DNA from: Smithella sp.
Lineage (GTDB): Bacteria > Desulfobacterota > Syntrophia > Syntrophales > Smithellaceae
Direction of reading: 5' to 3'
Assembly: GCA_039679455.1 (NCBI GenBank)
Contig: JBDKUX010000154.1
Coordinates: 22,552-86,551 of the forward strand
Length of the DNA: 64,000 bases
The notes below the pieces were generated by a model, which was not told the origin of the DNA, searched no databases, and was given only the letters and a program-made list of their open reading frames with translations. Of this stretch, positions 1 to 40,938 are shown piece by piece; the stretch's first letter is position 1; the number at the start of each line of letters is the position of its first letter. Made by a program: the position numbers and the translations under genes.

Positions 1-56
1 GGATCAAAGGAACCGGGATAAACTGCAATCCTGTTGTTAAATTTGTCTTGTGTCAT
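1..56 (-). CDS. coaD: phosphopantetheine adenylyltransferase, N-terminal fragment (gene runs off the left edge)
   Basis: The reverse complement of 1-56 reads ATG ACA CAA GAC AAA TTT AAC AAC AGG ATT GCA GTT TAT CCC GGT TCC TTT GAT CC. This translates to MTQDKFNNRIAVYPGSFD(P), the canonical CoaD N-terminal nucleotide-binding motif. The start overlaps the rsmD 3' end, matching the usual rsmD-coaD order. It is absent from the ORF track because it is truncated. Confidence 0.75.
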   Translation of the reverse strand, partial: MTQDKFNNRIAVYPGSFD

Positions 57-609: not shown

Positions 610-635
610 AATTTTAATAAAATATTTTCAGGATT

Positions 636-1433: not shown

Positions 1434-1460
1434 GCTGGTCTCTTTTTTTTAAGCCATGTA

Positions 1461-2102: not shown

Positions 2103-2284
2103 AAAGTTATAATCTTTCTCGAAATAAGGGGCTTGTGTATTATAATTAGATAAGCTTGTCAATATATCTTTGGTCTCGACAATTATCTTATGAAATTATT
2201 AACTTATAAAGAATTTACACTGATTGACTCTTAGTCTCCCTGTCTATATAATAAGTAAAAATATTATTATTTCTCTTGGATAAC

Positions 2285-4488: not shown

Positions 4489-6185
4489 GAACAATTTACC
4501 CGTTATTAAAGCCCCGTTTCCTGTCTGCTTTCAATAACATGCGGAAAAGCAATAAAAACAGTTTCCGGATCAGGTTTCTCATTTTCAGCGCCATCGGCCT
4601 TATTTTCTGGAGCGGCACATTTCTGACCTGCTACCGCATTCTGCTTTATTTTCAAAGCGTACAGGACTTCGGAAACATTCTGGCCATGAAACTTCTTTCC
4701 ATGGCGATTATGACTTTCTTTGCGCTGCTTATTTTCAGCAATATTATCAACATACTTTCTCATCTGTACCTGAGCCGGGACTTGCAGCTTTTACACTCTC
4801 TGCCTGTCGGCGCCGGAGATCTTTTCTTCTCGCGCTGGCTTATCAGCACCTTTGACAGTTCCTGGATGGTCGTTCTCTTCAGTCTCCCGGTCTTCCTTTC
4901 TTACGGAATCATTTATAAAGCGGGCATCTTCTTTTACCTCATTGCGGTACTGTCCATAATACTCATGTGTCTTATCACTTCCGCGCTTAGCGGCATTCTT
5001 GTCTTATTTGGCGCAAAAATCCTGCCCGCGGGCCGTATCCGGACAGTCTTCATTATTCTTGGTATTACATTAGTCCTGATGCTTGTTCTTGCTTTACGTT
5101 TGACAAGACCGGAGCAGCTGGTCAACCCGGACAGTTTCGCCTCCGCCGTACTTTATCTGAATTCAATGCAAACTCCCGATTTTCCTCTTTTGCCCACTAC
5201 CTGGATTACCGATGCCGTTAGGAACGCCCTTAACAATAAGTTCAAAAGTTCTCTTTTTGATATAGCCCTTACCGGAAGCTGCGCCTTCACTCTTATTTTC
5301 TTTGCCGGTATCATTGCCCGGAAGACATATTTTCCAGGTTTTTCCAAATCGCAAACAACCCCCGGACGACTTTTCACCCCGGCAAAAAATCAGGGGCTGC
5401 ACTGGGAAAATCTATTTAACTTTCTCTCCCGTACGGCAAAAGCTTTTGCCGTCAAAGAAATCCGGACTTTTTTCCGGGACTCAACACAATGGCCGCAACT
5501 ATTTCTTATGGGTGCTTTAATTGTAATTTATCTTTATAATTTTTCAGTTTTACCTCTAGATAAAGCACCGATAAAAACGATCTATCTGCAAAATTTATTT
5601 TCCTTTCTTAACATGGGGCTGGCTGCGTTTGTTCTTTCGGCGATTGCCGCCCGTTTCGTCTTTCCGGCGGTAAGCATGGAAGGAGCTGCTTTCTGGATCA
5701 TCCGGGCAGCTCCGGTATCTTTGAAAACATTTCTTTGGATTAAATTTTTCGTTTATTACATTCCATTAATATTACTCGCGGAACTGCTCGTTGTCTGTTC
5801 CAATCTGATGCTGCAGGTTTCTTTTTTCATGATGGCCTTATCGATATTAACAATATTCTGCCTCGTCCCTGCCGTGGTGGCCATGGGAATCGGATTGGGT
5901 GCAATATATCCTGATTTCCAGTCCGAAAATCCCGCCCAGACGGTAACAAGCTTTGGCGGCCTGCTTTTCATGATTCTTTCTCTGGCTTTAATAGCCGTGG
6001 TCATAATTCTCGAAGCCGGACCAGTTTATTACATTTTTGTGTCCGGAATGCGCCATCAAAGCCTTACAACCTGGCAGATGGCGTGGTTTGCCGGTTCTTT
6101 TACCATCGCCCTGTTCCTCTGCATATTTGTAGTCGCTTATCCCATGCGCCTGGGTGAAAAAAACCTGCAGAATATGCAAAGATGA
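4485..6185 (+). CDS. polytopic membrane protein, putative ABC exporter permease
   Basis: 566 aa with many hydrophobic segments. Its start overlaps the ATPase stop (ATGA). The role is inferred from this coupling to the ATPase. Confidence 0.65.
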   Translation: MRTIYPLLKPRFLSAFNNMRKSNKNSFRIRFLIFSAIGLIFWSGTFLTCYRILLYFQSVQDFGNILAMKLLSMAIMTFFALLIFSNIINILSHLYLSRDLQLLHSLPVGAGDLFFSRWLISTFDSSWMVVLFSLPVFLSYGIIYKAGIFFYLIAVLSIILMCLITSALSGILVLFGAKILPAGRIRTVFIILGITLVLMLVLALRLTRPEQLVNPDSFASAVLYLNSMQTPDFPLLPTTWITDAVRNALNNKFKSSLFDIALTGSCAFTLIFFAGIIARKTYFPGFSKSQTTPGRLFTPAKNQGLHWENLFNFLSRTAKAFAVKEIRTFFRDSTQWPQLFLMGALIVIYLYNFSVLPLDKAPIKTIYLQNLFSFLNMGLAAFVLSAIAARFVFPAVSMEGAAFWIIRAAPVSLKTFLWIKFFVYYIPLILLAELLVVCSNLMLQVSFFMMALSILTIFCLVPAVVAMGIGLGAIYPDFQSENPAQTVTSFGGLLFMILSLALIAVVIILEAGPVYYIFVSGMRHQSLTTWQMAWFAGSFTIALFLCIFVVAYPMRLGEKNLQNMQR

Positions 6186-6294
6186 TTTAATTTTCCACCT
6201 TTTAAATGGCATGTTAATTGAGCGGATTTGCCAATATTTTCCCTTTGGTTCTTTGCAGCCGTCGGCATGGACATTTTTGTTTTCTCTAAAGGAT

Positions 6295-6933
6295 TTATTT
6301 CTTCTGTATGTCGTTTTCGGAATCCCTTAGATCGGTGGAAGTTACGTGAAAGGAGGCTTCCATAGGGGACTGGTTCACCACCCATTGATTCAACAGTTTT
6401 TGATGATTTTCAAGGCGTTCCTTTAGACGGCTTTCGATAGGGCCATTAGGTAACTGACGGGCAAGGGAGGCGATTTCTGCTTGCGAGGTTTGTAATTCCA
6501 TAATCCGGTTTCCAATGGCACCGAGCATTTGATTAATCATTTTTGCTTCAGTTTTCAAGAAATCATTACGCCGCAGATAAACATTGCGTGTAGCGTCACC
6601 TTGCGCCAGCGTTTCGAAGGTATGCATCATATTTACCAGCGGTCCGCATAGTCTGTGAGAAAATACAATATAATAAACAATTGAAATTACAATGATCATT
6701 ATTATCATAATGCCGCCCCGATCAAGCAGGCGCAATAACGCTTCCGCTGATGCATATCGAATCCATAAAGAATCAGCCATCTTCAGATCATGATAAAAGG
6801 TTGATAGCAAAACGAAACAGAAAGTAAGTATCATCATTATCAGGAAAAATAGATTCGCCAGAACCAGGCGAAGCTGAAAGCTGGAATGGGTCAAAAGATG
6901 ACTCCACTTTCTGCGATTGACATTTGTTCCCAT
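6295..6933 (-). CDS. membrane protein with HAMP-like linker and coiled coil
   Basis: Two TM segments followed by a HAMP-like stretch (HRLCGPLVNMMHTFETLAQGDATRNVYLRRNDFLKTEAKMINQM). The ATG is preceded by GGAGGG. It is the last gene of the pseudopilin/HD-GYP operon. Confidence 0.6.
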   Translation of the reverse strand: MGTNVNRRKWSHLLTHSSFQLRLVLANLFFLIMMILTFCFVLLSTFYHDLKMADSLWIRYASAEALLRLLDRGGIMIIMIIVISIVYYIVFSHRLCGPLVNMMHTFETLAQGDATRNVYLRRNDFLKTEAKMINQMLGAIGNRIMELQTSQAEIASLARQLPNGPIESRLKERLENHQKLLNQWVVNQSPMEASFHVTSTDLRDSENDIQKK

Positions 6934-6982
6934 AACAAGCCCTCCCTCTTTATCAAAATCCGCGATCCATTTTTTACCAGAC

Positions 6983-7369
6983 TCAGGGCAACGATGCGCG
7001 TTTCCAGTTTATCGCTGGCTGGTTTTCAAACCATAGAGAATTCCTATCATTATTTGAATAGACCAGGCTCAAGGTTAATGTTGTTTGATTGGTATCCCTA
7101 TATTTAATTCTAACAATTTGTTGCGAATCCTTCTCTATTTGAGTTATTTCTTGAATAACACCAATTTCGGTGTTCTGTTCTTTATTCCCAAAGATGACTT
7201 GTTTCGCTTCTATCTTCATGAAACAATGCTGATAGTTTTCATGATCGCTTTCCCATTTTCCAATCACTTGTTCAGGCATTTGTGAACCTGTGCAGGCTGG
7301 AAAAACAGCCAAACACAGCAGGAGCAACCACCAGCCCCGCAACAGCTTATAATTGTCATGCGTTTTCAT
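6983..7369 (-). CDS. small lipoprotein, unknown function
   Basis: Signal peptide with a lipobox (LLLLCLAVFPAC). The ATG overlaps the HD-GYP stop (ATGA at 7366-7369). Confidence 0.6.
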   Translation of the reverse strand: MKTHDNYKLLRGWWLLLLCLAVFPACTGSQMPEQVIGKWESDHENYQHCFMKIEAKQVIFGNKEQNTEIGVIQEITQIEKDSQQIVRIKYRDTNQTTLTLSLVYSNNDRNSLWFENQPAINWKRASLP

Positions 7370-9483
7370 ACGTTTTTTCCTTTTAGTGTCATCATGTTAA
7401 GAAACACTTCAACCACCTCGGGAGCAAATTGCCGGCCGGCCTCTTGTCTGATAATCTGCATGACCTTATCTTTATCTAAGCCATTACGGTAAGGCCGGTC
7501 GGAAACCATGGCATCATAGGCATCCGCCAAACTCATAATTCTGGATAATAAATGTATCCGCTCTTTCTCCAACCCGAAAGGATACCCCTTGCCGTCATAT
7601 CGTTCATGATGCTGCTCGATAATCGGGATGATCTCCGCGTATGCCTTGATGGGGCTGAGAATCATCGCACCAATGGAAGGATGATCCTTGATGATCTCAT
7701 ATTCCTCTTTCGTCAACGTTCCATTTTTATCCAATATTTGTGAGGGAATGCTGATTTTCCCGATATCATGCAGCAATCCAGCGCGGCGCAGGTTTTCCTG
7801 GGATGACGCATCCAACCCCATGGCCGCTGCAATGTTTACAGCCAACTCAGTGACGCGCACTGAATGACCGGCCGTCCAGGATGATTTGGCATCTACGGTG
7901 CGCGCCAGTGCATAAAGGGTCCCCAAGTTCAGTTCCTTGAGTTCCCGAACCAAGTTGGAATTGGCAAATGCCACGGCCAAATGATCACAAAATCCACGAA
8001 TTCGTTCAAGTTCTGCAAGGTCGAATTCCTTCTGTTTTCCTACACCCATGCTTACCATGGCAAAAATGCGCTGCTGCAGCCGGATGGGAAATATGTAATA
8101 GCCATATACACCCGGTTGCTGCAATGTGGAGAGGCAGGAGGGAGCATCAGAGCCTGCATCAAACCTCAACCAACGTCGATCATCCTCAATGATGCGGTAT
8201 TCTTCAGGATTTAATTGGAGCGGCACTATAACGGGTTCCTGGTCCGGTTTTCCATTGCTATGGACAAATGAACGGCCTTGAAAGGGTTGATTCGCTTCCA
8301 GCAGGGAAATGGCTATCGGCTGGTTCCCGTAAAGTGTCTTGAAAAGTTTCAAACCGGTCATCACAATCTGCTCAATATCCGAAATGGCTAAAATGGTTTG
8401 ATCCATATTTGCACTTTCCGTCATGATCTGAAATTGAATATCCAACTCATGCGTCATATGATTAAATGCAGCGGCCAGATCATTGAACTCATCACAGGTA
8501 TCGACAACGACACGATGGGAAAACTTACGATCTGCGATAAGACGAGCCCCTTCCATGAGCGACTTAATAGGGTTCAGGCTCCTGTTGATGGCCCATGCAC
8601 TCAATCCGAGTACAATGATAAACGCGAGTACCAGGACAAAATGAAAAATAGTCTGAAAGATATGCAGAGGTTCAAAGACATGCTCTTTGGGCTCCAGTAA
8701 CATCACCATCCACTGGGATACGCCAAAGTGTGGTTTTAAAAACATGGACCAGTGGGCGGCAAAAAAGGAACTGCCTAGGAGGGACACTTCGGTTTGTCCG
8801 CTGGGTCGTCCGTTAATGAGGTGCCACATACGCTCATACCAGACATTCTCAGCCGTCATGGAACTGTATAATTTACCGCCCCGGTCATCCCAAAGGCAAA
8901 CCTCAGTGGAGGCCGGCAAATTGTTGCCTCTTTCCAACCCCCATAAATACTTTGGATTAACCATACCAATGAGGAATTCACCATCGGCCCCAGGATTTCC
9001 CGACCTGTGGATAATAGCCACTGAAGATTGCCCCACGGAATTAGTCCAGGTTACCAGACGGATGTTTTGTTGGGCGGAGACCATTTTGTGGATAGTTTCC
9101 AGGCGGGCGGGCGGCAGCGCGCTCCCCCAGGATGATGATATTTTCATGTTGCGGAACAGCGCCATACCGCTAAACAACTCGGAATTACGATCCCTCAAGG
9201 CTCGCGGCAAATCCGAAAAATTGATACTTTTTTTGCTCACAGATTGGATATCGTGCACCACCTGCAACTGCTGATCGGCCAATAAAAGACGCTCGTAAAT
9301 AGACAAGGCATGTGATTTGGCTGATTGGTGCAGCCTTTCGAAAGCCTGATCCTGGAGTTGCCGGATGACACGGTGATAGGAAATTCCAACCATAGCCAGG
9401 ATGGGGATCAGGGCACAAATGATAAACATAGCGAAAAATCGCCTTGCCAGCTTGCTTTTCAGAATGTTTGAACTTATTGCCAT
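7366..9483 (-). CDS. HD-GYP domain cyclic-di-GMP phosphodiesterase with periplasmic sensor, HAMP and GAF-like regions
   Basis: N-terminal TM, about 250 aa of extracytoplasmic region, a second TM, a HAMP (NPIKSLMEGARLIADRKFSHRV...FNHMTHEL), then a C-terminal HD-GYP domain (GLLHDIGKISIP...HHERYDGKGYP). Confidence 0.85.
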   Translation of the reverse strand: MAISSNILKSKLARRFFAMFIICALIPILAMVGISYHRVIRQLQDQAFERLHQSAKSHALSIYERLLLADQQLQVVHDIQSVSKKSINFSDLPRALRDRNSELFSGMALFRNMKISSSWGSALPPARLETIHKMVSAQQNIRLVTWTNSVGQSSVAIIHRSGNPGADGEFLIGMVNPKYLWGLERGNNLPASTEVCLWDDRGGKLYSSMTAENVWYERMWHLINGRPSGQTEVSLLGSSFFAAHWSMFLKPHFGVSQWMVMLLEPKEHVFEPLHIFQTIFHFVLVLAFIIVLGLSAWAINRSLNPIKSLMEGARLIADRKFSHRVVVDTCDEFNDLAAAFNHMTHELDIQFQIMTESANMDQTILAISDIEQIVMTGLKLFKTLYGNQPIAISLLEANQPFQGRSFVHSNGKPDQEPVIVPLQLNPEEYRIIEDDRRWLRFDAGSDAPSCLSTLQQPGVYGYYIFPIRLQQRIFAMVSMGVGKQKEFDLAELERIRGFCDHLAVAFANSNLVRELKELNLGTLYALARTVDAKSSWTAGHSVRVTELAVNIAAAMGLDASSQENLRRAGLLHDIGKISIPSQILDKNGTLTKEEYEIIKDHPSIGAMILSPIKAYAEIIPIIEQHHERYDGKGYPFGLEKERIHLLSRIMSLADAYDAMVSDRPYRNGLDKDKVMQIIRQEAGRQFAPEVVEVFLNMMTLKGKNV

Positions 9484-9948
9484 TTAATATCCTGCTGCAG
9501 TGCCTATGTATGCGCCGTCATTGGCCCTGATAATATCATCCTGGCTATTCTTGGCGGTTAACGCTAAAGTGCTGACACCATCCGGCCCCATGCTGTACAA
9601 GTCAAAATCGCTGTTGATGGGAACCAAAAAACGATCCTTGCGGGCGCTCCCTGCCACTTTAGGCCCCAGACCGGCTAACTTAATGTATTGATAAGAATTT
9701 CCCCATGGGTCTTTCATATTACTCAAGCCAATATCGGCAAGACTGCCCGGATACACCCCTGTGTCTACGAAATAGCCGGATACAGCTTGATCGATGACCT
9801 TGATTCCGGAAATAGCAACGGCAATCTGCGCTTTTTCACGGTAGTGGATGAAAACAGGTATGGCCACGGCTGCCAAAATAGCTATAACAGCGATAACTAT
9901 CATCAATTCAATCAGTGTAAATCCCTTGGAGTTACTTTGGATTATCAA
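9484..9948 (-). CDS. GspG-like pseudopilin / type IV pilin-like protein
   Basis: Prepilin cleavage/methylation motif KG|FTLIELMIVIAVIAILAAVAIP and a GspG-like region DPWGNSYQY...YSMGPDG...DDI. The maximal ORF reaches the ATG at 10005. A TTG at 9948, preceded by AAGGG, would give a normal 9-aa leader (MIIQSNSKG). The stop abuts the HD-GYP start. Confidence 0.75.
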   Translation of the reverse strand: MIIQSNSKGFTLIELMIVIAVIAILAAVAIPVFIHYREKAQIAVAISGIKVIDQAVSGYFVDTGVYPGSLADIGLSNMKDPWGNSYQYIKLAGLGPKVAGSARKDRFLVPINSDFDLYSMGPDGVSTLALTAKNSQDDIIRANDGAYIGTAAGY

Positions 9949-10309
9949 TAATCGGCCCTTACAGTAGATCTTATTCGACACTGATATCAACAACACAAAT
10001 ACCATAAGCGATCAGTGCCTATTTCTCATCCAAACTCTTATACCGTGCCATCATGGAAATTTCGAACAATAAGACCGGAACATTGTGAAACAATTCACAT
10101 TATATCTAACTCGGCTTTTATAATATAAACTTTAAATATATGGTATTTTCCGGTACATTCCAGCGGAATGACTGGTGACGAATGCAGAACTCAAATTCAA
10201 TAATATGCTGGGACTGACAGGACTTTTACTATTCTTCCCAACGAACTATTTGATTAAACGGAAAGCAGGTATTATATAAGAACAGTTTATCAAATAATTG
10301 AGGCCTATA

Positions 10310-11221
10310 ATGAATATAGCGCAAGACAGAGACAAAAGATTCGGCATGGCGAATCGCATCATCACTATTGGTTTCTGGATTAATGCCGTACTGATGGCGA
10401 TGAAGCTGCTTGCCGGTTATTTCGGTAAATCCGAAGCCGTTTTTGCCGATGGTATTGAGAGCGCCTGCGATTTTGTCGCCATCATCGCCACGCTGATTGC
10501 TCTCAAGGTGGGATGCAAATCGGTTGACCGGGAACATCCTTATGGACACGGCAAGGCCGAATGCATCTCCGCCATCTTTGTTTCTTTGATTATTCTTGCT
10601 GCCGGTGGCGGCATCCTGTACAAGGCGGCCATCACCTTCATTCACGGAGACTACCCTGAACCGCACTTGATTGCCGTTGCGGCTGCCTTCACGACTATAT
10701 TAGTAAAAGAGATCCTTTTTCACTATACCCACCGTGTTGCCATACTGCTCGAAAGCCCCGCCGTAGATGCAATTGCCAAAGATCATCGCAAAGATGCACT
10801 GACTTCCATCGCCACATTGATCGGTGTTACCGGCGCGTACTTCGGCATTGTTTTTTTAGACCCGCTCGCCGCTGCTCTCACCTCATTTTTTATTTTTTAT
10901 ATCGGCATAACAACTTTCAAAAAAAGTTGTCACGACCTGATGGATGGTCAACCTCCCCAGGAAATATTGACACAAATTAGCAGTACAGCCGAAGAAATTA
11001 CCGGAGTTGCTCGTGTTCATGAGATAAGAGGAAGGCGCTCCGGACAATATCTGATCATAGATTTAAAACTGGAAATGGACCCGGACTTGACCGTGAAACA
11101 ATCGCACGACATAGCAACCAATGTCAAAATCCTTATCTTCAAGCGTTTCTCCAATGTAGGAGACGTTATGATTCACATCAACCCCTCCAACGAAGAACAT
11201 GAAGACTTAATAAGATTATAG
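10310..11221 (+). CDS. cation diffusion facilitator family transporter
   Basis: TM domain with the CDF metal-site pattern (ADGIESACD...HPYGHGKAE) and a C-terminal cytoplasmic domain (HEIRGRRSGQYLIIDLKLEM...IHINP). The track start at 10298 is TTG; the ATG at 10310 follows GAGG. Confidence 0.85.
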   Translation: MNIAQDRDKRFGMANRIITIGFWINAVLMAMKLLAGYFGKSEAVFADGIESACDFVAIIATLIALKVGCKSVDREHPYGHGKAECISAIFVSLIILAAGGGILYKAAITFIHGDYPEPHLIAVAAAFTTILVKEILFHYTHRVAILLESPAVDAIAKDHRKDALTSIATLIGVTGAYFGIVFLDPLAAALTSFFIFYIGITTFKKSCHDLMDGQPPQEILTQISSTAEEITGVARVHEIRGRRSGQYLIIDLKLEMDPDLTVKQSHDIATNVKILIFKRFSNVGDVMIHINPSNEEHEDLIRL

Positions 11222-11354
11222 CCGGATTTTGATGTTTGATTCCGACTAATCGGCGAAAATTGTCTTGATTTTACTCGTGTGATGAGTTAAACAAGCCCCT
11301 CTCATAATAAAGCTGTTTTATTATGATATTATTGTGAAATTGAAAGGATATTTC

Positions 11355-13436
11355 ATGGCAAAGTACGACTCCAAATCCCTCAGAAATCTGGCCGTTGTCG
11401 GCCACGGCAGTACAGGTAAAACCTCTCTTTGTGAATCAATTTTATTTACCTCCGGAAAAAGCGAACGGCTCGGTCGCGTCGATGATGCCAGTTCGGTTAT
11501 GGATTTTGAACCCGAAGAACAAAAACGACGAAGTTCCATCAGTTCAGCGGCAAATTTTGTCGAATGGGATAAACATAAAATCAATTTTATTGATACGCCG
11601 GGCGATTCCAATTTCTCCTTTGATATAAAATGTTCATTGAGCGTCGTGGATAACGCCGTCATCGTCATTGATGCGGTCAGCGGTGTGGAATTTCAGACTC
11701 AAAAAGTTTGGGAATTTGCCGATGAGTATGATCTCCCGCGGGCTATTTTCATTAACAGAATGGATCGTGAACGCGCCAACTTTAACAAAGCTCTGGAAAG
11801 CATAAAAAACAGTTTCAAGAGAAAAGTAACCCCCATCTGCCTGCCTGTCGGTGCAGAGGATAAATTCAACGGCATTATTGATCTGATCAATTTCAAAGCC
11901 TATTCATTCACTGACAACAAAGGAATAGGTAAGGCTGCTGATATTCCGGCAGAATTGATGGAGGAAGCTAAATCCTTCCGCGACACAATGGTCGAGGATA
12001 TTGCGGAATGTGATGATGAACTGATGAACAAATATCTGGAAGAGGGCGAGCTTTCCGCTGAAGAACTTAAAGCCGGATTGAAAAAAGGGGTCTCCTCCGG
12101 CAATCTGATTCCTCTCATCTGCGGCTCGGCGCTAAAAGGAATCGGTGTTTCCCTGCTGCTCGATATGGTCGTCAATTCTTTCCGTTCTCCTGCCGAATGC
12201 GCACCCCACAAGGGTAAAAAACCGGGCACCGATACCGTGGAAGAAAGAATGCCTGCCGAAGACGCGCCCTTCTCCGCTATCGTTTTCAAGACCATTGCCG
12301 ATCCCTACGCCGGACGATTAACATTGTTCCGTGTATACTCCGGAAAGCTTGCCTCTGACACCGCCGTTTACAATTCCACAAAGAAGATTACGGAAAAATT
12401 CGGTCATGTCTTCTTCCTGGAAGGTAAAAATCAAAAACAGGCTGAAGAATTGATTCCCGGCGACATAGCCGGTGTCGCGAAACTTAAAGATACCGTTACC
12501 GGCGACACCCTCTGCATGGAAAAAGCGCCGATCATTTTTGACAGCGTGGAAGTGCCCAATCCCATCATGTCCTTTGCCATCGAACCCAAAACAAGGGGTG
12601 ATGAAGATAAGATTGCTTCATCCATTCATCGACTGACGGAAGAAGACCCGACAATCGTATTCTCCCGTAATGTCGAAACCAAGGAAATGATACTTTCGGG
12701 AATGGGTCAGGTGCATATCGAAGTCAACATCGAAAAGATGAAAAGAAAATTCGGTGTTGAAGTCAATTTGAACACGCCCAAGGTTCCTTACAAAGAAACC
12801 ATCAAGGGGAAGACCAACGTTCAGGGTAAATACAAGAAACAGTCGGGCGGCCGCGGTCAATTTGGCGATTGCTGGATTGACATTGAGCCATTGCCCCGCG
12901 GTGGCGGTTTCATATTTGAAGATAAAATTGTCGGTGGTGTAATTCCGGGACAATATCGTCCGGCTGTCGAGAAGGGTATCGTGGAAGCAGCGGCCAAAGG
13001 CGTCATCGCCGGTTATCCTGTTGTCGATTTCAAAGTGGCATTGACCTTCGGTTCCTACCATACGGTAGATTCGTCGGAAATGGCTTTTAAAATTGCCGGT
13101 TCTATGGCTTTCCAGAAAGGCGTCGAGCAATGCCAGCCGATTTTACTGGAACCCATCGTTAACATTAGTATCGAAGTTCCCGACGAATACATGGGCGACG
13201 TCATCGGTGATTTAAACAGTCGTCGAGGACGAGTTCTCGGCATGGAATCCCATGGCTCCAATCAGGTAATCAAGGGGCAGGTACCGCTGGCTGAAATTTT
13301 AAAGTACGCCCCCGATCTGCGTTCCATGACCAGCGGCCGGGGTAATTTTACCTACACTGAGTCCCACTACGAAGAAGTGCCGGCTTTCATCGCAGAAAAG
13401 ATTATTGCCGAATCGAAGAAAGAGAAAGAAGAATAA
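11355..13436 (+). CDS. elongation factor G paralogue (EF-G-like GTPase)
   Basis: Full EF-G domain architecture. The G1 motif is GHGSTGKT, where canonical EF-G has AHIDAGKTT, followed by DTPG and NRMD. The ATG at 11355 follows AAAGGA; the track start at 11334 is an extension. Confidence 0.85.
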   Translation: MAKYDSKSLRNLAVVGHGSTGKTSLCESILFTSGKSERLGRVDDASSVMDFEPEEQKRRSSISSAANFVEWDKHKINFIDTPGDSNFSFDIKCSLSVVDNAVIVIDAVSGVEFQTQKVWEFADEYDLPRAIFINRMDRERANFNKALESIKNSFKRKVTPICLPVGAEDKFNGIIDLINFKAYSFTDNKGIGKAADIPAELMEEAKSFRDTMVEDIAECDDELMNKYLEEGELSAEELKAGLKKGVSSGNLIPLICGSALKGIGVSLLLDMVVNSFRSPAECAPHKGKKPGTDTVEERMPAEDAPFSAIVFKTIADPYAGRLTLFRVYSGKLASDTAVYNSTKKITEKFGHVFFLEGKNQKQAEELIPGDIAGVAKLKDTVTGDTLCMEKAPIIFDSVEVPNPIMSFAIEPKTRGDEDKIASSIHRLTEEDPTIVFSRNVETKEMILSGMGQVHIEVNIEKMKRKFGVEVNLNTPKVPYKETIKGKTNVQGKYKKQSGGRGQFGDCWIDIEPLPRGGGFIFEDKIVGGVIPGQYRPAVEKGIVEAAAKGVIAGYPVVDFKVALTFGSYHTVDSSEMAFKIAGSMAFQKGVEQCQPILLEPIVNISIEVPDEYMGDVIGDLNSRRGRVLGMESHGSNQVIKGQVPLAEILKYAPDLRSMTSGRGNFTYTESHYEEVPAFIAEKIIAESKKEKEE

Positions 13437-13463
13437 AGCAGAAAAACGAAAAATTGAAACCTG

Positions 13464-13499
13464 GACCGCCGTTGCTTGTAAACGGCGGTCTTTTTATTT
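13464..13499 (+). terminator. rho-independent terminator after the EF-G paralogue
   Basis: Perfect 10-bp stem GACCGCCGTT (13464-13473) / AACGGCGGTC (13481-13490) with a 7-nt loop, followed by TTTTTATTT. Confidence 0.8.
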
Positions 13500-13526
13500 C
13501 GGGCACAATGATAATATTACAACGAG

Positions 13527-14021
13527 TTATGTGTGCAGGCTTTTTTCATTCTGGTATATGGACAACTCTTTCAGGAACTGCAGAGAATTACGCCGATGAG
13601 TCCCCTCCCAGAAGATGCGCCGACAGCGTGGACATTTATGAAATGCATGGCAATTAGCGAAAACATAGGGCGGCACCAGGTTGTACACTTCTTCTTTCTC
13701 AACCGGCTCCAGCCTTTCATTGCATTTAAGGCAGATGCTGAACATTTTTTCTTTCTGAAGGATTAAGGAATATTCAGCAATCACTTCCTGAAGCTGACTG
13801 CCGACATCAGTACCCTTAACAAAATATAATTGTCCGGAAAACTGGCGCTTCAGCATATCCCGCCTTCTGGTTAGAACAATTCTTTTTTCGGAAGCAGCCA
13901 GATTCAGCAAATTCCTGCCGGCTTCATACGAGTATACAATCGTATCATAACCAACGAGCCGCAGCCATTTGGCTAATTTAGACAAGGTGCCGTCTGCGAG
14001 ATACTTTGGATCTTCAGACAT
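13527..14021 (-). CDS. Mut7-C RNase domain (DUF82, PIN-like plus zinc ribbon) protein
   Basis: ADGTLSKLAKWLRLVGYDT... followed by CxxC...CPRC zinc-ribbon cysteines (CLKCN, CPRCRR). The ATG at 14021 (MSEDPKYLADG) is preferred over the track start at 14093. Confidence 0.7.
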   Translation of the reverse strand: MSEDPKYLADGTLSKLAKWLRLVGYDTIVYSYEAGRNLLNLAASEKRIVLTRRRDMLKRQFSGQLYFVKGTDVGSQLQEVIAEYSLILQKEKMFSICLKCNERLEPVEKEEVYNLVPPYVFANCHAFHKCPRCRRIFWEGTHRRNSLQFLKELSIYQNEKSLHT

Positions 14022-14328
14022 TTTGCGGGGGTATTTTAGACTCTTCGATGATCGGGGGTGGTTCATTGGCGCGAAGTTCTTTGCGCAAATCACGAATGGT
14101 CTTATTCAAACGACTGATGTTCCGGTTTAAACGAAATCTTTCGATTATGCCCAGAAAACCGGTAACAACTACCCCTATCAGAAGAGCTATAAAAAGCAGC
14201 ACGTATATGGGAACAAACATGTCAAAAAAATTATAATATTTAAGATGAACCGGCGCTGAATTCTCCAGAGAAAAAGTAACAATAAAAAAAGCAAATATTA
14301 TAAATAAAATTAAATAAACCACTTTCAT
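14014..14328 (-). CDS. LapA-domain (DUF1049) inner-membrane protein
   Basis: MKVVYLILFIIFAFFIVTFSLENS...VLLFIALLIGVVVTGFLG gives two TM helices, followed by a basic coiled tail. The ATG at 14328 is preceded by GGAGG. The track ORF extends into the HIT gene. Confidence 0.6.
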   Translation of the reverse strand: MKVVYLILFIIFAFFIVTFSLENSAPVHLKYYNFFDMFVPIYVLLFIALLIGVVVTGFLGIIERFRLNRNISRLNKTIRDLRKELRANEPPPIIEESKIPPQNV

Positions 14329-14332
14329 CTCA

Positions 14333-14818
14333 TTAATCCTCCCGATGATATTTCTGAAAAAGAGGGGCAAGCTTTTTCGCCGTTGTTTCCAAATCCTCCG
14401 GTACAATCCGCACATCACTTACAACGCTCATAAAGTTTGAATCGCCTTCCCAACGAGGAATTACATGCATGTGGATATGCTCTTCAATACCAGCCCCGGA
14501 TGCTTTGCCGATATTGAAACCTATATTAAAACCACCAGGATTCATCGCTTCCTTAAGCACTCTTATTGATGTGTCCAATAATGTAAATATTTCAATTCTT
14601 TCTTCTTGAGTTAAATCTTCAATTTCAGCAACATGACGCGTTGGGATAATCATCAAATGACCAGTGTTGTAAGGATATCTGTTCATCATAACAAAACAAC
14701 ATTTGCCTTCATGCATTATATAATCATCGCATCTGATCGAACTTTTACAAAATATACAGCCCTTTGGTTTTTCCCCTTTAATATATTCCATCCGACACGG
14801 TGCAAAAATTGTTTCCAT
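14333..14818 (-). CDS. HIT family hydrolase
   Basis: Histidine triad HIHMHVIPR and N-terminal Cys pairs (CIFC). Confidence 0.85.
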   Translation of the reverse strand: METIFAPCRMEYIKGEKPKGCIFCKSSIRCDDYIMHEGKCCFVMMNRYPYNTGHLMIIPTRHVAEIEDLTQEERIEIFTLLDTSIRVLKEAMNPGGFNIGFNIGKASGAGIEEHIHMHVIPRWEGDSNFMSVVSDVRIVPEDLETTAKKLAPLFQKYHRED

Positions 14819-14826
14819 ATTCCAAC

Positions 14827-15324
14827 CTAAATATTTATTATCTTACCTGTTATCGCCTTGTCAATTTCTAATATACCTACGGATCTATGCGGTGCGAAAC
14901 GTTTGTCTGTTGGTGATCCGGGATTAAAAAAAAATACGCCGCCTTTTTTATGGCAAGCCGGAATGTGGGTGTGCCCATAAATAATGCAATCCAGTTTGCC
15001 TAATCTGGCTAGTATTCTTTCCTCTATTCCCGCAGGAGATCCCCATCCGTGGATAACTCCAAACTGAAATCCCTTTATTTCAAAAAACAACTGTTCGGGT
15101 AATTCCTCTCTGACGGAAGTATAATCCATGTTGCCGCAGACTGCCTTAATCTCTTTGTCGGCAAACATATCCAATACACGCAAATCGACTAAATCTCCGG
15201 CATGAATAATTATATCCACATCGCCAAAATGCTTATTGATGATGGTTTCTAATCTTTGGTCATAACCGGGAAGATGTGTATCGGAAATGACGCCTATTTT
15301 TATTTTTTCCATTGCCATAATCAT
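14827..15324 (-). CDS. YfcE/MJ0936-family metallophosphoesterase
   Basis: Motifs ISDTH, GD(L)VD, GNMD, GHTH. The start could be the ATG at 15324, 15318 or 15312. Confidence 0.8.
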   Translation of the reverse strand: MIMAMEKIKIGVISDTHLPGYDQRLETIINKHFGDVDIIIHAGDLVDLRVLDMFADKEIKAVCGNMDYTSVREELPEQLFFEIKGFQFGVIHGWGSPAGIEERILARLGKLDCIIYGHTHIPACHKKGGVFFFNPGSPTDKRFAPHRSVGILEIDKAITGKIINI

Positions 15325-15432
15325 CCCGGATTATTAACGGCAAGATATAAAAAAAACAAGTTTTATTTCTTTTTAACCACGGCAAAAGCTTTTAATTTGA
15401 CTTTAAATAAAAGTGAAGTTAATATTTACACC

Positions 15433-17729
<2,297 letters not shown>

Positions 17730-17732
17730 TGT

Positions 17733-18005
17733 ATGAAGCGCGTACGACTTCATATATGCGGTCTGGTTCAGGGGGTGTGCTTTCGGGCGGCAACAAGACA
17801 AATCGCCACGAAATTAAATCTCACCGGCTGGGTGCGCAACATGAAAGACCGACGTGTCGAAGCCATTTTTGAAGGTGAGGATGCCGCTGTAGAAAAAATT
17901 GTTGAATGGTGTCAGGTCGGCCCGCCTTCAGCCCGCGTGGATAAAGTCATAATGATGGAAGAGCAATACACGGGCTTGTTTTCCGGCTTCAGCATAAAGT
18001 ATTAA
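17733..18005 (+). CDS. acyP: acylphosphatase
   Basis: 90 aa with GLVQGVCFRAATRQIA...GWVRN, the acylphosphatase signature. Confidence 0.85.
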   Translation: MKRVRLHICGLVQGVCFRAATRQIATKLNLTGWVRNMKDRRVEAIFEGEDAAVEKIVEWCQVGPPSARVDKVIMMEEQYTGLFSGFSIKY

Positions 18006-18009
18006 TCGC

Positions 18010-18477
18010 CTATAAGCTGCATCCAATCTTTTCCAGCAATCTATTGAGGAATTCCAGTTGCCCCTTTAATATTTTTTCCCTGGCCTCTTGAATGTCAAAC
18101 CACCGCCCCTTATCAACTTCCGGATACTCCCTGGTGATGCCGCTCTTTGGCGGCCACTCCAGACTGAAGGTATTGCTGATAATTTTAGACGTGTCGAAGT
18201 CATGCTCCAAAGCCCACGCATGTACTATTTTCCTGCTCGGTTGTTTAACTTCCCCCAGATCGATAAACTCTCCGTCCACATCCTGTCCAGTTTCTTCTTT
18301 AAATTCACGTTTGGCGGCATCGAGGGAATCCTCGCCTTCCTCGTACATTCCTTTGCAAACCGACCATGCTCCATCGTCCTTCTTTGCCCAGAAAGGACCG
18401 CCGGGATGCACGAGCATAACCAGAAGCTTTCCTTCATTAAAGCGATATAACAGTATGCCTGCACTGCGAACGCTCAT
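18010..18477 (-). CDS. NUDIX hydrolase
   Basis: NUDIX box GMYEEGEDSLDAAKREFKEETGQ. Confidence 0.8.
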   Translation of the reverse strand: MSVRSAGILLYRFNEGKLLVMLVHPGGPFWAKKDDGAWSVCKGMYEEGEDSLDAAKREFKEETGQDVDGEFIDLGEVKQPSRKIVHAWALEHDFDTSKIISNTFSLEWPPKSGITREYPEVDKGRWFDIQEAREKILKGQLEFLNRLLEKIGCSL

Positions 18478-18590
18478 GACCTGCCTCTCTTCCAGATATT
18501 CTAATACGATTTTTTTACAGCCGCCAGCAGTAAGTGCTTTAAATGCTAACGAACCTGGATAATATCCCGGCCAAAAAAATGCAATACTTA

Positions 18591-18619
18591 TTGATAATGC
18601 AATCGAATTAAAGTATTAA
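18591..18619 (+). promoter_or_regulatory. candidate sigma70-type promoter for the 18721 gene
   Basis: TTGATA (18591-18596), a 17-nt spacer, then TATTAA (18614-18619), about 100 nt upstream of the ATG. Called by pattern only. Confidence 0.25.
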
Positions 18620-18720
18620 ATATAAATAATCAGGGATGTAAAGCCAACAGTTCCGTCAGCGTTTTGCGCTGATCCATATTAACAACGGCGGACTTTTATA
18701 ATCGAAGGCGGAGGCCAACT

Positions 18721-19680
18721 ATGTTTACGTTTGCACAGAAACATAATATAGTTCAGCAGACCAGGTCTACGATTTCCGGTTGGAGTCACTCCAGGCAAAG
18801 CCGTGAGGTAAATTCGATCCTTCACTTACAGCGCACAAACGGCATACAGAGGATTTTAGATGAAAACAAAAGGAAGACAGCGGCCAAAGAAGCCTCTATC
18901 GGCACAGAGACTTCGCGTTTCGATCATGACTTTAGTCGGATTCCCGTGCATTCCGAAAAGCCTTTTTTGAGCTTGGCCAAACCATCACACCCGGCGCCGA
19001 CGGGGTCGCACTCGACGCAGGGAGGATCGACAATCTCCGGACGTGCTCCCGGCGAAAACGAGAACAATCCTGGGCTCATCGGTGGCGTCATCTCCACTGC
19101 CGCCGGTAACTTCGTGAGTGGCATTGCAGCGCAGTTGACGGGGATCGGCATCAACACAGCCGACACCCACGCGGCAACATGGAACCCTCACGGGGCCTTC
19201 AACTGGCGCATTACATGGAACATGACAGGGAAAAACGTGGGTGCGACCACCAACGGGTGGCTGGTTCAGAACGTTAACAACACATACTCCGGTGTCGACT
19301 CCGCAGGCGCTGTGATCACCACGGCGCGTGTGGGCGCGACACCGAGCTATTACGAAGCCTGGCCGGTTGTCGCCGGCGCTGTGCAACAACCTTGGGGCGG
19401 AGTGTCCGACGACACCTGGGGACGGCCGGACCTTTCCGTGTGGCCCACTGTGGCCGACGCCGGTACGAAGGGTCGCTGGTCGATGACCAGCAAGGTCTAC
19501 TTCACAACCACTGATCCCACAGCCCACGGCTTGGCTCGACGTAACGTAGCCGACGCGGGAGACCTTCCTTCAGCGGTCGCCGCCCCGCCGGATCTGGGCG
19601 TTATCCGCCTGCAACGGTATGCCCGCGGGACCTGGGACAGCACAGGGCCTGCTCCTGTCCATACAGGAGAGAACGGCTGA
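18721..19680 (+). CDS. DUF4157-leader protein with a foreign, high-GC C-terminal domain of unknown function (polymorphic-toxin-like architecture)
   Basis: The N-terminal ~85 aa contain LHLQRTNGIQRIL and FDHDFSRIPVH, the two hallmark motifs at the start of DUF4157-family proteins. No HExxH follows them. Around 18970 the DNA composition jumps from about 40-43% to about 58-67% GC (hand counts on 60-nt lines). The C-terminal ~230 aa are Gly/Thr/Trp-rich with no motif I recognise. Confidence 0.7.
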   Translation: MFTFAQKHNIVQQTRSTISGWSHSRQSREVNSILHLQRTNGIQRILDENKRKTAAKEASIGTETSRFDHDFSRIPVHSEKPFLSLAKPSHPAPTGSHSTQGGSTISGRAPGENENNPGLIGGVISTAAGNFVSGIAAQLTGIGINTADTHAATWNPHGAFNWRITWNMTGKNVGATTNGWLVQNVNNTYSGVDSAGAVITTARVGATPSYYEAWPVVAGAVQQPWGGVSDDTWGRPDLSVWPTVADAGTKGRWSMTSKVYFTTTDPTAHGLARRNVADAGDLPSAVAAPPDLGVIRLQRYARGTWDSTGPAPVHTGENG

Positions 19681-19708
19681 TGCGACACGTAAAAGCGACT
19701 TTTGACCG

Positions 19709-20392
19709 GTGGCGACACTCCGGACCACTACCTGCAGCATCCGGGATTTGATGGATGGAGCCGTCTCCGCTGTTCCTACTACTTCAAGAGGTATTATTAA
19801 CGTGACTCTTCTCGCCGCCGCAGCCAGTTCGGTCTTCACCACCTTTAACCCGGGTGTTTTGGTTGCCGTGGTAAACACACTGCTTGCCCTAGGCAAGTAC
19901 GGCGCACTGGACGCTGTCGAGCGCCGGCTCGCCGAGGCTGACCGTATCGCTGATCCACAACACGGTCTATTCCTCATCCTGCGTCTTCTGTTTGAAGTCC
20001 CTGCCGATCCGGGTTTCCACCCGCCTATGCACATTGGAATCCCGAATGTCGCAGCGCCCAGGGACGCAAAGACTCTGCCCCATTTCCCACTGATTGTCGT
20101 GGACGACATCCCTCTTCTATTGATAACAACGTTCATTATGGGAGGCTCCCCCGAATTGGTCGAAGCCCACTTAAAGCACTTCCACGATAACGGCACCCTT
20201 CGAACTGCCCCCCTTACACCGAAAACCTTTTTAAGCCCGGCCAAAATTATCGGCCATCTCATCCCGCTTTACCGTAACGCCTATGGGATTGAACCGGCAC
20301 CGGCCCAGATCAAAATGCTCGAACAGCAATTGCGGCGTATGCAAATTTCGACAAATGGGAAGCCTGGGAGTCTGTCGGATTCACCTTCCTGA
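19709..20392 (+). CDS. hypothetical protein encoded in the same high-GC insert (candidate cognate or immunity-like partner)
   Basis: The amino-acid composition looks natural on the + strand, whereas the overlapping minus-strand ORF is Arg/Ser/Ala-rich, as expected for a shadow ORF. The track start at 19709 is GTG, with an alternative ATG at 19751 (MDGAVSAV). GC decays from about 62% to about 47% along the gene. No recognised motif. Confidence 0.5.
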   Translation: MATLRTTTCSIRDLMDGAVSAVPTTSRGIINVTLLAAAASSVFTTFNPGVLVAVVNTLLALGKYGALDAVERRLAEADRIADPQHGLFLILRLLFEVPADPGFHPPMHIGIPNVAAPRDAKTLPHFPLIVVDDIPLLLITTFIMGGSPELVEAHLKHFHDNGTLRTAPLTPKTFLSPAKIIGHLIPLYRNAYGIEPAPAQIKMLEQQLRRMQISTNGKPGSLSDSPS

Positions 20393-20421
20393 TTTAACAG
20401 TCATTAACATTACCTCAATTT

Positions 20422-20667
20422 TTGCCATCAGCGTTTGCTCTTGATATTCAAGGCTTATGGAAACATCGATGTTACTTGAAAGATGCGAGCATCGAGCATT
20501 ATTCAGGCAATAGTTCCTGGTATTTTTGGACAGCCATCACGCCGAACGGCTCCGCATATAAATGCCAGGCTTTTTCCGGTGACAAGACAAGTTACTGCAG
20601 AGAAATTAAAATCAACGACTCCGAAAAAAAAGAAGAAAGTTCCCAGAAGATAAGCAGTAACAAATAG
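20422..20667 (+). CDS. questionable small ORF (81 aa, TTG start)
   Basis: Open frame only. It has four Cys and a Lys/Ser/Glu-rich tail, no SD sequence, and overlaps an equally long antisense ORF. Confidence 0.2.
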   Translation: MPSAFALDIQGLWKHRCYLKDASIEHYSGNSSWYFWTAITPNGSAYKCQAFSGDKTSYCREIKINDSEKKEESSQKISSNK

Positions 20668-21107
20668 GAAGGTGACATCCCAAAGTCTTAAGTTATGTCG
20701 ATTGCACGTCATGAATAACTTCCTGCTTATCAAGCGTTCGCTGATTTTTCTATTTATACGTTAGTACTATCGGAAATAAATTGTTAACCTTTATCGGGAC
20801 ACTGAATATCCATGGGATGACCATGGCCAGTTTTAACACTCCAAGTATTTAAACTGACACACAAACGGGACATCCCTTCAAACAAATAACAATCATTATT
20901 TCGCCTAAATTATACCTATCAATATATTGCACTTGTTAAAAAAAGTGCAAAGTATTAAACCTAAAGCTTATTTTGAAGATTTAAAAGTTTATTGTTTTTA
21001 TCGATCTGCTTTATGTTTTGCCAGTCTCGGAATTTAACAGTGTGACAGGGCTATAACTGATTTAACAAGTCTTTATACTACAATCACTGAACAGAAGGAG
21101 GGAAACA

Positions 21108-21737
21108 ATGAACATTTATAGGAAAATTGTTTATGAAATAATATTGATAATCATCTCGTTAACGCTTGTCTGCACTATATCAACGAACGTTCAAGCTAAT
21201 TACTTATATTCCTATACCGGGCGAGATTTTAATCAACGCTATAACATGGGCTCGGGCCACACAAACCTTAGAGGATACTTCACAACAGCAACTCCCATTG
21301 GCAGCACCGTGCTGACTAATGTGAGTCCGATCAACTATGACTTCACTGATGGGGTCATGCGCTGGACAAACACGTCTCAACCTCTCGCCGGCTACACCCT
21401 TTTCCAGATGTCGGAAGACCAAGACCATAACCCTCTACAATGGCACATCGATCTGTGGCTAAACTTCAGCACGCAAGGCTACACAGACCTATGGCATGCA
21501 GGTATAGACTATGACTTTACCTATCCGGATAATCAAATCACGCTAGATATTGTCGAGCACATATATGGAATGGCCTCATTGGAGAAGGACTCTGCCTTTA
21601 TCTGGTATATGTCTAACCACCCACACGGTGAGTGGACTCCGGGACAATACTACCAAGTACCCATACCCCCTTCCATACTTCTCTTTCCCTGCGGGCTAAT
21701 TGGTCTGTGGGGTTGGGGGCGTAAGAAGTTTCAATAA
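21108..21737 (+). CDS. secreted protein with a PEP-CTERM-like C-terminal sorting signal
   Basis: Strong SD (AAGGAGGG) and a signal peptide (IILIIISLTLVCTISTNVQA). The C-terminus VPIPPSILLFPCGLIGLWGWGRKKFQ* reads as a Pro-rich motif, then a TM helix, then a basic tail, with VPIP in place of the canonical VPEP. Confidence 0.6.
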   Translation: MNIYRKIVYEIILIIISLTLVCTISTNVQANYLYSYTGRDFNQRYNMGSGHTNLRGYFTTATPIGSTVLTNVSPINYDFTDGVMRWTNTSQPLAGYTLFQMSEDQDHNPLQWHIDLWLNFSTQGYTDLWHAGIDYDFTYPDNQITLDIVEHIYGMASLEKDSAFIWYMSNHPHGEWTPGQYYQVPIPPSILLFPCGLIGLWGWGRKKFQ

Positions 21738-40826: not shown

Positions 40827-40938
40827 AAGGCTTACTAACGCAAATATAACAACGAAGCAAAGATTTTTTATTGACTTATTTTGCTTTCTCATAAAAAAAT
40901 AAACCACGAGATATTAATTACCAGGCAGGGAGCAGCAA

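Follow-up and report, generated by a model that had tools for sequence, protein, structure and literature searches.

Toxins associated with extracellular contractile injection systems (eCIS-associated toxins, EATs) that contain DUF4157/eCIS_core have been described by Geller et al. 2021 (PMC8213781) and Danov et al. 2024 (PMC11297309). They offer the closest comparison for the locus studied here, a pair of adjacent open reading frames (ORFs), ORF1 and ORF2, in 64,000 nucleotides of a Smithella sp. contig (JBDKUX010000154.1, positions 22,552 to 86,551; hereafter the window, whose coordinates are used throughout). EATs combine a hydrophilic, disordered N-terminal signal with a variable C-terminal effector domain, as does ORF1; their genes stand at the 3' ends of eCIS operons beside eCIS_core genes, as do those of ORF1 homologues; and some have adjacent immunity-type genes, as does the ORF1 family. 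Unlike EATs, ORF1 contains neither DUF4157/eCIS_core nor an HExxH motif, just an 18-residue motif resembling the first strand of that domain, and the window copy is not near any eCIS gene. Its C-terminal domain also falls outside the EAT1-17 domain annotations consulted in the two sources (PMC8213781, PMC11297309), a comparison made by annotation and not by sequence.

Other described systems share part of this design. Cgo1 and Cgo2, two cargo proteins of AlgoCIS (Xu et al. 2022, PMC8894135; PROCIS preprint 10.64898/2026.05.27.728243) show the same order of disordered N-terminus, optional DUF4157 and C-terminal domain, and cargo of one AlgoCIS system share similar loading N-terminal regions, which is likewise seen in one locus of the ORF1 family (L002). 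ORF1 differs in having no DUF4157 part, and the likeness is one of architecture, loading having been shown for AlgoCIS. Rhs and other polymorphic toxins, like the ORF1 family, have a domain on several delivery regions and a small partner gene directly downstream; unlike them, our locus has neither cassette displacement nor arrays of orphan C-terminal modules. A further parallel is offered by orphan effector-immunity pairs of type VI secretion systems and by orphan immunity genes: the locus is likewise a two-gene module away from secretion machinery, patchy among close relatives, horizontally acquired and selected, the difference being that the delivery system would here be an extracellular phage-tail-like particle. 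The architecture and genetic logic of the locus are thus already known from eCIS-associated toxins and polymorphic toxins (PMC8213781, PMC11297309). What is new is the C-terminal domain family and the partner family, both unannotated, and the finding that the two have moved, as an orphan of 2 kb, into a low-GC syntroph. With moderate confidence, we interpret the locus as a horizontally acquired orphan eCIS cargo/immunity-type cassette of a widespread unannotated family.

The window is ordinary chromosome of a Smithella/Smithellaceae bacterium. Its LigA shares 93% identity with a protein recorded as 'MAG: Smithella sp.' (MAG, metagenome-assembled genome), and all but one of 28 other window ORFs of ≥250 amino acids that were scanned give housekeeping, signalling or DNA-repair domains, for example EF-G, ligase, RecBCD, sigma-54, HPr kinase and two-component systems, with ligA assigned by homology. 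The gene order ligA, acylphosphatase, NUDIX, ORF1, ORF2 recurs in one related contig (L001) and is kept in a second, shorter one (L009) from ligA to the cassette as far as that contig reaches. Three close relatives (L024, L026 and L027), whose LigA proteins are 93%, 91% (L026) and 88% identical, keep ligA-acyP-NUDIX without the cassette: at the cassette site L026 has only a short spacer, that is, an empty site, and a YkuD transpeptidase gene together with an OmpA-like one is found there in L024 and L027. In BLASTN comparison with L026, homology stops at 18478, just beyond the NUDIX start, and restarts at 20403/20404 ('ATTACCTCAATTTTTGCC'), 12 nt past the ORF2 stop; homology to L024 extends to 18510, and the upstream region beyond 18510 has no match in L026, L024 or L027. 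Because homology to L026 breaks at these points, the foreign segment spans about 18479-20403, and because the island limits (~18479-18510 and 20403/20404) lie outside ORF1, the leader of ORF1 arrived with the cassette.

The composition of this segment also sets it apart (GC profile in 200-nt intervals, background in 500-nt intervals). GC is 0.36-0.50 before ~18990, with 0.41-0.50 at 18600-18999, then 0.58-0.67 at ~18900-19700 and ~0.51-0.61 across ORF2, and falls to 0.30-0.44 past 20300 (0.44 at 20300-20499). The mean of the whole window is 0.438; outside the tract the background has a mean of 0.435, a standard deviation of 0.039 and a maximum of 0.54, against which the peak inside the tract, 0.636, gives z = 5.1. 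The G+C counts per 60-nt line in the initial annotation were reproduced on recount (19 at 18601, 35 at 19021, 37 at 19081, 40 at 19381 and 22 at 20701), the sole mismatch being line 19861, with 36 instead of 37. GC at third codon positions (GC3) is 0.523 in ORF1 codons 1-86, 0.695 in codons 87-319 and 0.592 in ORF2, compared with 0.47 +/- 0.036 (range 0.373-0.533) in 27 other long window ORFs, so that the previously noted switch to GC-rich third positions inside ORF1 is real and unlike other genes (0.695 versus a maximum of 0.533). Since GC3 deviates as well, the jump is more than an effect of amino-acid composition, which as sole cause of the GC excess is ruled out by the deviant GC3 together with the empty sites.

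Deviant composition and absence at the same site in close relatives thus coincide, and the high-GC tract, as initially proposed, is foreign DNA without a counterpart in close Smithella relatives of the same ligA-acyP-NUDIX synteny; we regard a horizontally acquired island of ~1.9 kb as practically certain. Its features are collected in Table 1. Signs of mobility typical of genomic islands (integrase, tRNA target, flanking direct repeats) were not seen: the window contains no tRNA and no Rfam match, repeats around the island do not exceed short chance-level ones, and there is no integrase near the island, the nearest tyrosine recombinase lying 20 kb off at 39939-40907. No significant promoter or terminator was found around the island, nor a convincing sigma-70 promoter upstream of ORF1. 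The site downstream of NUDIX (window ~18480) is a variation hotspot at which close Smithella relatives differ in gene content, occupied by the cassette in the window and L001, by PG_binding_1/YkuD and OmpA-like genes in L024 (10950-13143) and L027 (11038-13228), and by TPR and flagellar genes in L026 (10793-13121).

Table 1 Features of the acquired island and its two genes, in window coordinates
Feature	Coordinates	Strand	Basis
Island, ~1.9 kb, two genes plus upstream non-coding DNA	18479..20403	.	L026 homology breaks; GC 0.58-0.67 vs 0.435
AT-rich upstream non-coding region, ribosome-binding site GGAGG at 18709-18713	18479..18720	+	80% identical to L001 locus
ORF1, 319 aa, leader + linker + beta-sandwich	18721..19680	+	ORF list, homologues, syntenic orthologues
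N-terminal leader, codons 1-86; LHLQRTNGIQRIL at 18820-18858, FDHDFSRIPVH at 18919-18951	18721..18978	+	Disorder, leader profile
Gly/Ser/Ala-rich linker, codons 87-139, with hydrophobic Gly-rich stretch LIGGVISTAAGNFVSGIAA	18979..19137	+	Family conservation
C-terminal beta-sandwich, codons 140-319, presumed effector/toxin module	19138..19677	+	AlphaFold2, conservation, selection
ORF2, 196 aa, GTG start preceded by AAGAGG; conserved partner, presumed immunity protein	19802..20392	+	Homologue starts, pairing

ORF1 is very probably an eCIS-cargo-type protein. An AlphaFold2 model built on a 26-sequence alignment predicts residues 1-129 to be disordered (predicted local distance difference test score, pLDDT, < 50). 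The leader is hydrophilic (Kyte-Doolittle sum of -43 over the first 50 residues), has two aromatic residues within its first 8 positions and is positively charged between residues 6 and 21 (net +3), all features published for eCIS signal peptides (PMC11297309). By these predictions ORF1 possesses the disordered, hydrophilic N-terminal sequence of the loading type expected of eCIS cargo; in AlgoCIS such a disordered N-terminal region is needed for loading, and DUF4157 and the C-terminal domain are dispensable (bioRxiv 10.64898/2026.05.27.728243). We also built a hidden Markov model (HMM) of the leader from nine leader-bearing proteins without the beta-sandwich, five of which are listed with PF13699. 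ORF1 residues 1-77 match it at 76.9 bits (E = 6e-26), which upholds the view of the N-terminus as a trafficking leader common to DUF4157/eCIS_core proteins, and the two motifs reported at first were confirmed, LHLQRTNGIQRIL at codons 34-46 and FDHDFSRIPVH at codons 67-77. Proteins that lack the beta-sandwich domain (P0024, P0028 and P0033) bear the same leader.

The domain name that had been attached to this leader did not survive. In the training proteins of the HMM, the leader is followed by a spacer and then by the true eCIS_core opening with a second 'RFGxDFSxVRVH' motif, ending in HELxH. ORF1 gave no match to PF13699 by hmmscan even at E ≤ 1, an outcome that the initial annotation had itself listed as counting against its reading, and a home-made 86-position eCIS_core HMM aligned only its positions 20-37 to ORF1 residues 64-81 (8.3 bits). 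There is no HExxH anywhere in the 319-residue translation, and the core-bearing homologues P0026 and P0028 have HELxH. The 'DUF4157 leader' is therefore the region that precedes DUF4157 and not the domain. The linker follows the family consensus GSTxSGxAPGE...LIGG...STGxGNxVGGxAALxTGIDI, has low AlphaFold2 confidence, and begins where the GC step falls. We rejected its Gly-rich part as a firm transmembrane helix because the Kyte-Doolittle mean over 19 residues peaks at only 1.49.

Residues ~140-319 are predicted to form a compact all-beta domain (pLDDT 89-98), a Trp-rich, Cys-free beta-sandwich in which W162, G179, Q183, E212, W214, D231 and W305 are invariant across 47-162 diverse members. 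Judging from this conservation, the polar trio Q183/E212/D231 may be a candidate active site. ORF1 has no match in Pfam, NCBIfam or PADLOC and a single non-significant one in PHROGs (E = 0.056), and profile searches against PDB sequences with narrow and broad alignments returned nothing meaningful. Foldseek against the PDB gave only generic beta-sandwich or Ig-like binding domains (best E = 0.009), and against BFVD only an uncharacterised giant-virus protein (E = 1.6e-5); no relatives were found on viral contigs. The description of the C-terminal domain as one resembling nothing with a name held, as profile and structure searches gave no significant known match.

ORF2 is a real and co-inherited partner gene, as had been supposed, with homologues downstream of the domain across phyla and a ratio of non-synonymous to synonymous divergence (dN/dS) of 0.22. 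The initial annotation was right that the downstream ORF is a gene and wrong about its start, placed at 19709/19751; the most likely start is the GTG at 19802, where all homologues begin. An antisense ORF of 230 amino acids (19570-20262) was dismissed as a high-GC artefact, given the conservation of ORF2 across phyla and its dN/dS. The 15 close homologues of ORF2 are on the same contigs as ORF1 homologues, and the identity of ORF2 to the neighbours of the domain is 86% in L001, 59% in L002, and 32% in both L006 and L007. Directly 3' of the domain, L001, L002, L004, L006, L007 and L008 all have an ORF2 homologue, and so do 11 of the 11 named-genome loci with a domain ≥37% identical, which belong to Chlorobiota, Acidobacteriota, Bacteroidota, Chloroflexota, Alphaproteobacteria, Actinomycetota and others. 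Pairing therefore extends to every reasonably close locus examined, in about eight phyla, with coding regions that overlap in several loci (L002, L007 and L008).

The ORF2 protein lacks a leader, no transmembrane segment is predicted for it, and its invariant positions are chiefly Pro, Gly and hydrophobic residues. It matches nothing in Pfam, NCBIfam, PADLOC or PHROGs, and 22 diverse ORF2 homologues likewise match nothing in Pfam. As judged from sequence, this pattern most likely fits that of a cognate immunity protein. Two observations concern the ends of the protein. The window ORF2 (20343-20392) keeps a 14-residue C-terminal tail, ISTNGKPGSLSDSPS, like the tails in P0038-P0041, and the L001 orthologue ends earlier (11619-11626) without it. 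Three homologues (L019 10172-10987, L020 10540-11355 and L010 3748-4422), called as longest ORFs, have N-terminal extensions resembling a lipoprotein signal ('...LFLPVVLVSC'); in some lineages the ORF2-type partner may be exported, or these ORF calls may be over-extended.

We next consider the family to which ORF1 belongs. A search with ORF1 gave 35 homologues; orthologues 80-81% identical are present in the syntenic Smithella-type contigs L001 and L009. A profile search of 1.84 billion representatives yielded 1,256 clusters (50% identity) with E ≤ 1e-3, of which 477 reach E ≤ 1e-10. Most members have 250-340 amino acids, that is, an N-terminal region plus the domain. Among 170 members examined, 45 have the canonical leader at E ≤ 1e-3 and 33 an HExxH motif; of ten long members scanned, seven contain PF13699 and five have PG_binding_1 beside the domain. 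The domain accordingly occurs behind the leader only, behind eCIS_core, or behind eCIS_core plus PG_binding_1.

A more distant copy (33 bits) is apparently present at the extreme C-terminus of a 1,452-residue Rhs/YD-repeat protein from a Pseudomonadota MAG (L023, 1189-5547), where it follows the DPxGL motif, after '...DPTNLRDPSGLES', and so stands where Rhs proteins have their toxin tips; an ORF2-type gene was not detected in its vicinity. One leader with several C-termini and one domain with several delivery regions constitute the modularity seen in polymorphic toxins, the Rhs case being weak at this score. Such toxins have a cognate immunity gene downstream; ORF2, a presumed one, shows the adjacency and the co-occurrence. 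Their displaced cassettes have no counterpart at our locus, where neither orphaned pieces of C-terminal modules nor additional partner genes follow.

The genomic context of the homologues links the family to eCIS. One copy (P0008, L004) belongs to a complete eCIS locus with Phage_sheath_1, gp19 tube, Pvc16_N, AAA and DUF6519 genes. Another (P0010, L002/L003) stands at the end of an eCIS-like cluster after a 637-residue eCIS_core protein with an N-terminus of the same leader type, and a third (P0026, L007) is upstream of tube, Phage_base_V, PAAR and gp25 genes. Homologues of gp25, baseplate and DUF6519 genes and an eCIS_core-like segment are near the copy in L012. In these loci (L002-L004, L007 and L012) the homologues lie within or next to eCIS operons, which bears out the proposed eCIS connection for the homologues; the window copy does not. 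L015, L019 and L020 have eCIS_core-like segments nearby, with no structural genes detected. The copies in the window, L001, L006/L017/L018 and L013 are orphans, the last in the isolate Chitinophaga sp. SYP-B3965. Consistent with the initial annotation, injection machinery is absent from the window: the scan of ORFs ≥250 amino acids found no sheath, tube, baseplate, AAA or Pvc16 domain.

Some of these loci show further features. In L004 (4324-6341 and 8366-9676), other cargo comprise an eCIS_core + Ntox16 gene followed by a DUF6714 gene and an eCIS_core protein with a faint phospholipase-A2 match on the opposite strand. In L002/L003, the eCIS-like cluster including the ORF1 and ORF2 homologues (1-11500) has a GC of 0.58-0.64 versus 0.44-0.52 in the flank (11500-20888), so that whole eCIS loci, too, show up as islands of high GC within mid-GC genomes. 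In L015, a Rhizomicrobium MAG, two domain genes ~1.3 kb apart (10175-10675 and 11514-11978) have one ORF2 homologue between them and are followed by an eCIS_core gene.

To place the acquisition in time, we compared the window with L001 (Nei-Gojobori). DNA identity is 0.887 for ligA, 0.893 for the C-terminal part of ORF1, 0.868 for ORF2 and 0.741 for the leader. Synonymous divergence (dS) is 0.46 in ligA, 0.46 in the leader, 0.47 in the linker, 0.33 in the domain and 0.32 in ORF2. Because these identities and dS values resemble those of the flanks, the ancestor that these loci have in common already had the cassette, and the sequences indicate vertical inheritance in a Smithella subclade since acquisition. 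The corresponding dN/dS values are 0.097 for ligA, 0.107 for the domain, 0.19 for the linker, 0.22 for ORF2 and 0.62 for the leader: both proteins are under purifying selection, and only the leader evolves fast. Leaders diverge strongly also between homologues with 85-90% identical domains, including P0010 inside an eCIS locus, and fast leader evolution is a property of the family, not local decay.

How, then, should the GC step inside ORF1 be explained? The initial annotation saw a host-like N-terminus joined here to a foreign C-terminus, which would mean that a resident leader gene of host composition had its C-terminal module and immunity gene swapped in situ, with codon ~87 as the junction. 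The sharp step in GC and GC3 within ORF1, with a leader GC3 of 0.52 inside the host range, is what such a swap would leave; a conserved leader common to proteins with different C-termini could in principle guide recombination, and the window leader, at 76.9 bits, is nearer to the canonical one than the leaders of the two orthologues, which score 49.5 and 51.9 bits. Yet the empty-site relatives lack the whole gene, homology breaking upstream of the start codon, and neither they nor the rest of the window contain a leader-like sequence or, in the window, a second copy of leader or domain. Leader, linker and domain are moreover contiguous in high-GC homologues, including P0003 (L008, contig GC 0.70), with which the window leader shares 'DEN..KEASIG..HDFSRIPVHS[DE]K'. 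Flank GC is 0.70 in L004, 0.72 in L007, 0.70 in L008 and 0.645 in L006; in such loci the gene and its partner match their surroundings and leader GC is only slightly below that of the domain. The same architecture exists in genomes of GC 0.65-0.72, the only ones whose composition the family fits.

The leader itself carries a history that speaks against a local junction. Two small, clade-specific deletions, as well as the stretch that follows the LHLQR motif, are common to it and to the leaders of P0001 and P0002, and its dS equals that of ligA. The GC jump, whose absence from orthologues would have told against the first account, is instead found in L001/L009-type loci as well: the three Smithella-type loci have domain GC of 0.62-0.64 and leader GC of 0.46-0.53 in hosts of 0.43-0.46, and their majority-consensus ancestor was already stepped (0.50 vs 0.64). 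An in-situ swap, largely refuted by the boundaries outside ORF1 and the shared leader deletions, is thus highly improbable, and gene conversion of the window leader from a host paralogue was rejected on the deletions common to orthologues and the dS equal to ligA. No recombination scar underlies the GC step inside ORF1. The step sits between a weakly constrained K/N/Q/I/S-rich leader and a constrained G/A/P/T/W-rich linker and domain, and it is probably due to amino-acid content combined with a leader that drifts faster toward host composition; substitutions on the window branch of the leader (24 GC->AT vs 14 AT->GC) are weak evidence in the same direction.

With the cassette accepted as an acquired unit, the question becomes what its two proteins do. 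We somewhat favour toxin plus immunity for ORF1 and ORF2. If ORF1 is eCIS cargo, ORF2 could alternatively serve as its dedicated chaperone or adaptor, holding it in an unfolded or soluble state or handing it over for loading, or as a cofactor of its activity. Strict pairing over deep divergence with coding regions that often overlap, the absence of a leader from ORF2, and invariants that are mostly Pro, Gly and hydrophobic, as in binding proteins, would all suit such a helper, and chaperone-like helpers for eCIS toxins are discussed in PMC11297309. Purifying selection at loci without a nearby eCIS (window, L001, L006 and L013) fits neutralisation more easily, however, and sister cargo in the same eCIS locus show a layout of toxin then small gene (Ntox16 then DUF6714 in L004), which makes a chaperone role unlikely in our view. 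We give still less credence to a non-antagonistic pair in which ORF1 is not a toxin and its beta-sandwich is a carbohydrate- or cell-wall-binding, structural or accessory module of the particle. Foldseek yields only non-significant generic binding folds, long forms have PG_binding_1 beside the domain, and no catalytic motif is recognisable in this Trp-rich, Cys-free domain; but the protein has a cargo-type leader, lies at that end of eCIS operons where effectors are encoded, amid cargo with known toxin domains, apparently takes the toxin-tip position in an Rhs protein, has an invariant Gln/Glu/Asp set and comes with a dedicated partner gene.

Several points weigh against an orphan cargo/immunity cassette. 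No eCIS gene is present in the 64-kb window or in the 21 kb read of the 41.5-kb L001 contig, and delivery in the window organism is for this reason unsupported. Many eCIS toxins lack immunity genes (PMC8213781), and no ORF2 homologue adjoins the most distant domain copies (L021-L023). The AlphaFold model of ORF2 is unreliable (pLDDT 53), and it does not separate a chaperone from an immunity role. The donor can be described only as a high-GC lineage, and amelioration is weakly supported, as on the window branch the domain shows 19 GC->AT vs 20 AT->GC changes. Finally, the domain has no structural or sequence match to a known toxin or enzyme and may have a binding or structural role. Our literature search on Smithella and contractile injection, and on orphan eCIS effector/immunity pairs, returned nothing relevant. 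The effector/immunity pair proposed at the outset is nonetheless plausible as an annotation, and the word 'new' applied to it then needs qualification in view of the 1,256 clusters of the family.

As an orphan eCIS cargo/immunity-type cassette, the locus would work as follows. The cassette, leader included, arrived as a unit from a high-GC lineage. The disordered, basic leader of ORF1 would be recognised for loading into an eCIS tube; in characterised systems, an AAA+ ATPase recognises the N-terminal leader for this purpose. Once injected into a target cell, ORF1 would be toxic there through its beta-sandwich, with the invariant Gln183, Glu212 and Asp231 possibly catalytic. ORF2, made from the same transcript and lacking a leader, would stay in the producer, where, as in its kin, it would bind and neutralise the domain and so act as immunity protein. 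In Smithella, the pair may serve an eCIS encoded outside the 64 kb or persist as an orphan module for protection or addiction. A bolder version, which we put forward tentatively and consider possible rather than probable, is that the domain and its partner define a toxin/immunity family that is new, also in its biochemical activity, with an invariant Gln-Glu-Asp site and no solved fold relative, shared by eCIS cargo and Rhs toxins in at least eight phyla, the orphan pair being kept, in lineages that have no injection system, as protection from the particles of neighbours or as an addiction module.

Two ORFs downstream of the island were also noted. An 81-residue, Cys-containing ORF (20422-20667, within 20404-20680) has a weak SPASM-like match (E = 0.007) and seems to be the 3' part of a 110-residue gene that is intact in L001 (11938-12270) and L026 (11331-11663); ~200 bp between the two homology blocks of L001 are missing from the window near this place. 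Further on, a 209-residue ORF (21108-21737, + strand) has a hydrophobic N-terminal segment and no Pfam or NCBIfam match, and its C-terminus, 'VPIPPSILLFPCGLIGLWGWGRKKFQ', resembles a PEP-CTERM-type sorting signal.

The payloads of eCIS are poorly catalogued, and they are relevant to microbial ecology and to programmable protein delivery. The cassette defines a widespread unannotated cargo domain with a constant partner, a confident predicted structure and candidate catalytic residues, and because of that structure and the short list of residues it is directly testable. As the locus also makes plain, an abrupt GC step within a gene is not necessarily a recombination junction. It shows, too, that pairs of eCIS cargo and partner move and persist as 2-kb orphans, as in this anaerobic syntroph without a visible injection system.

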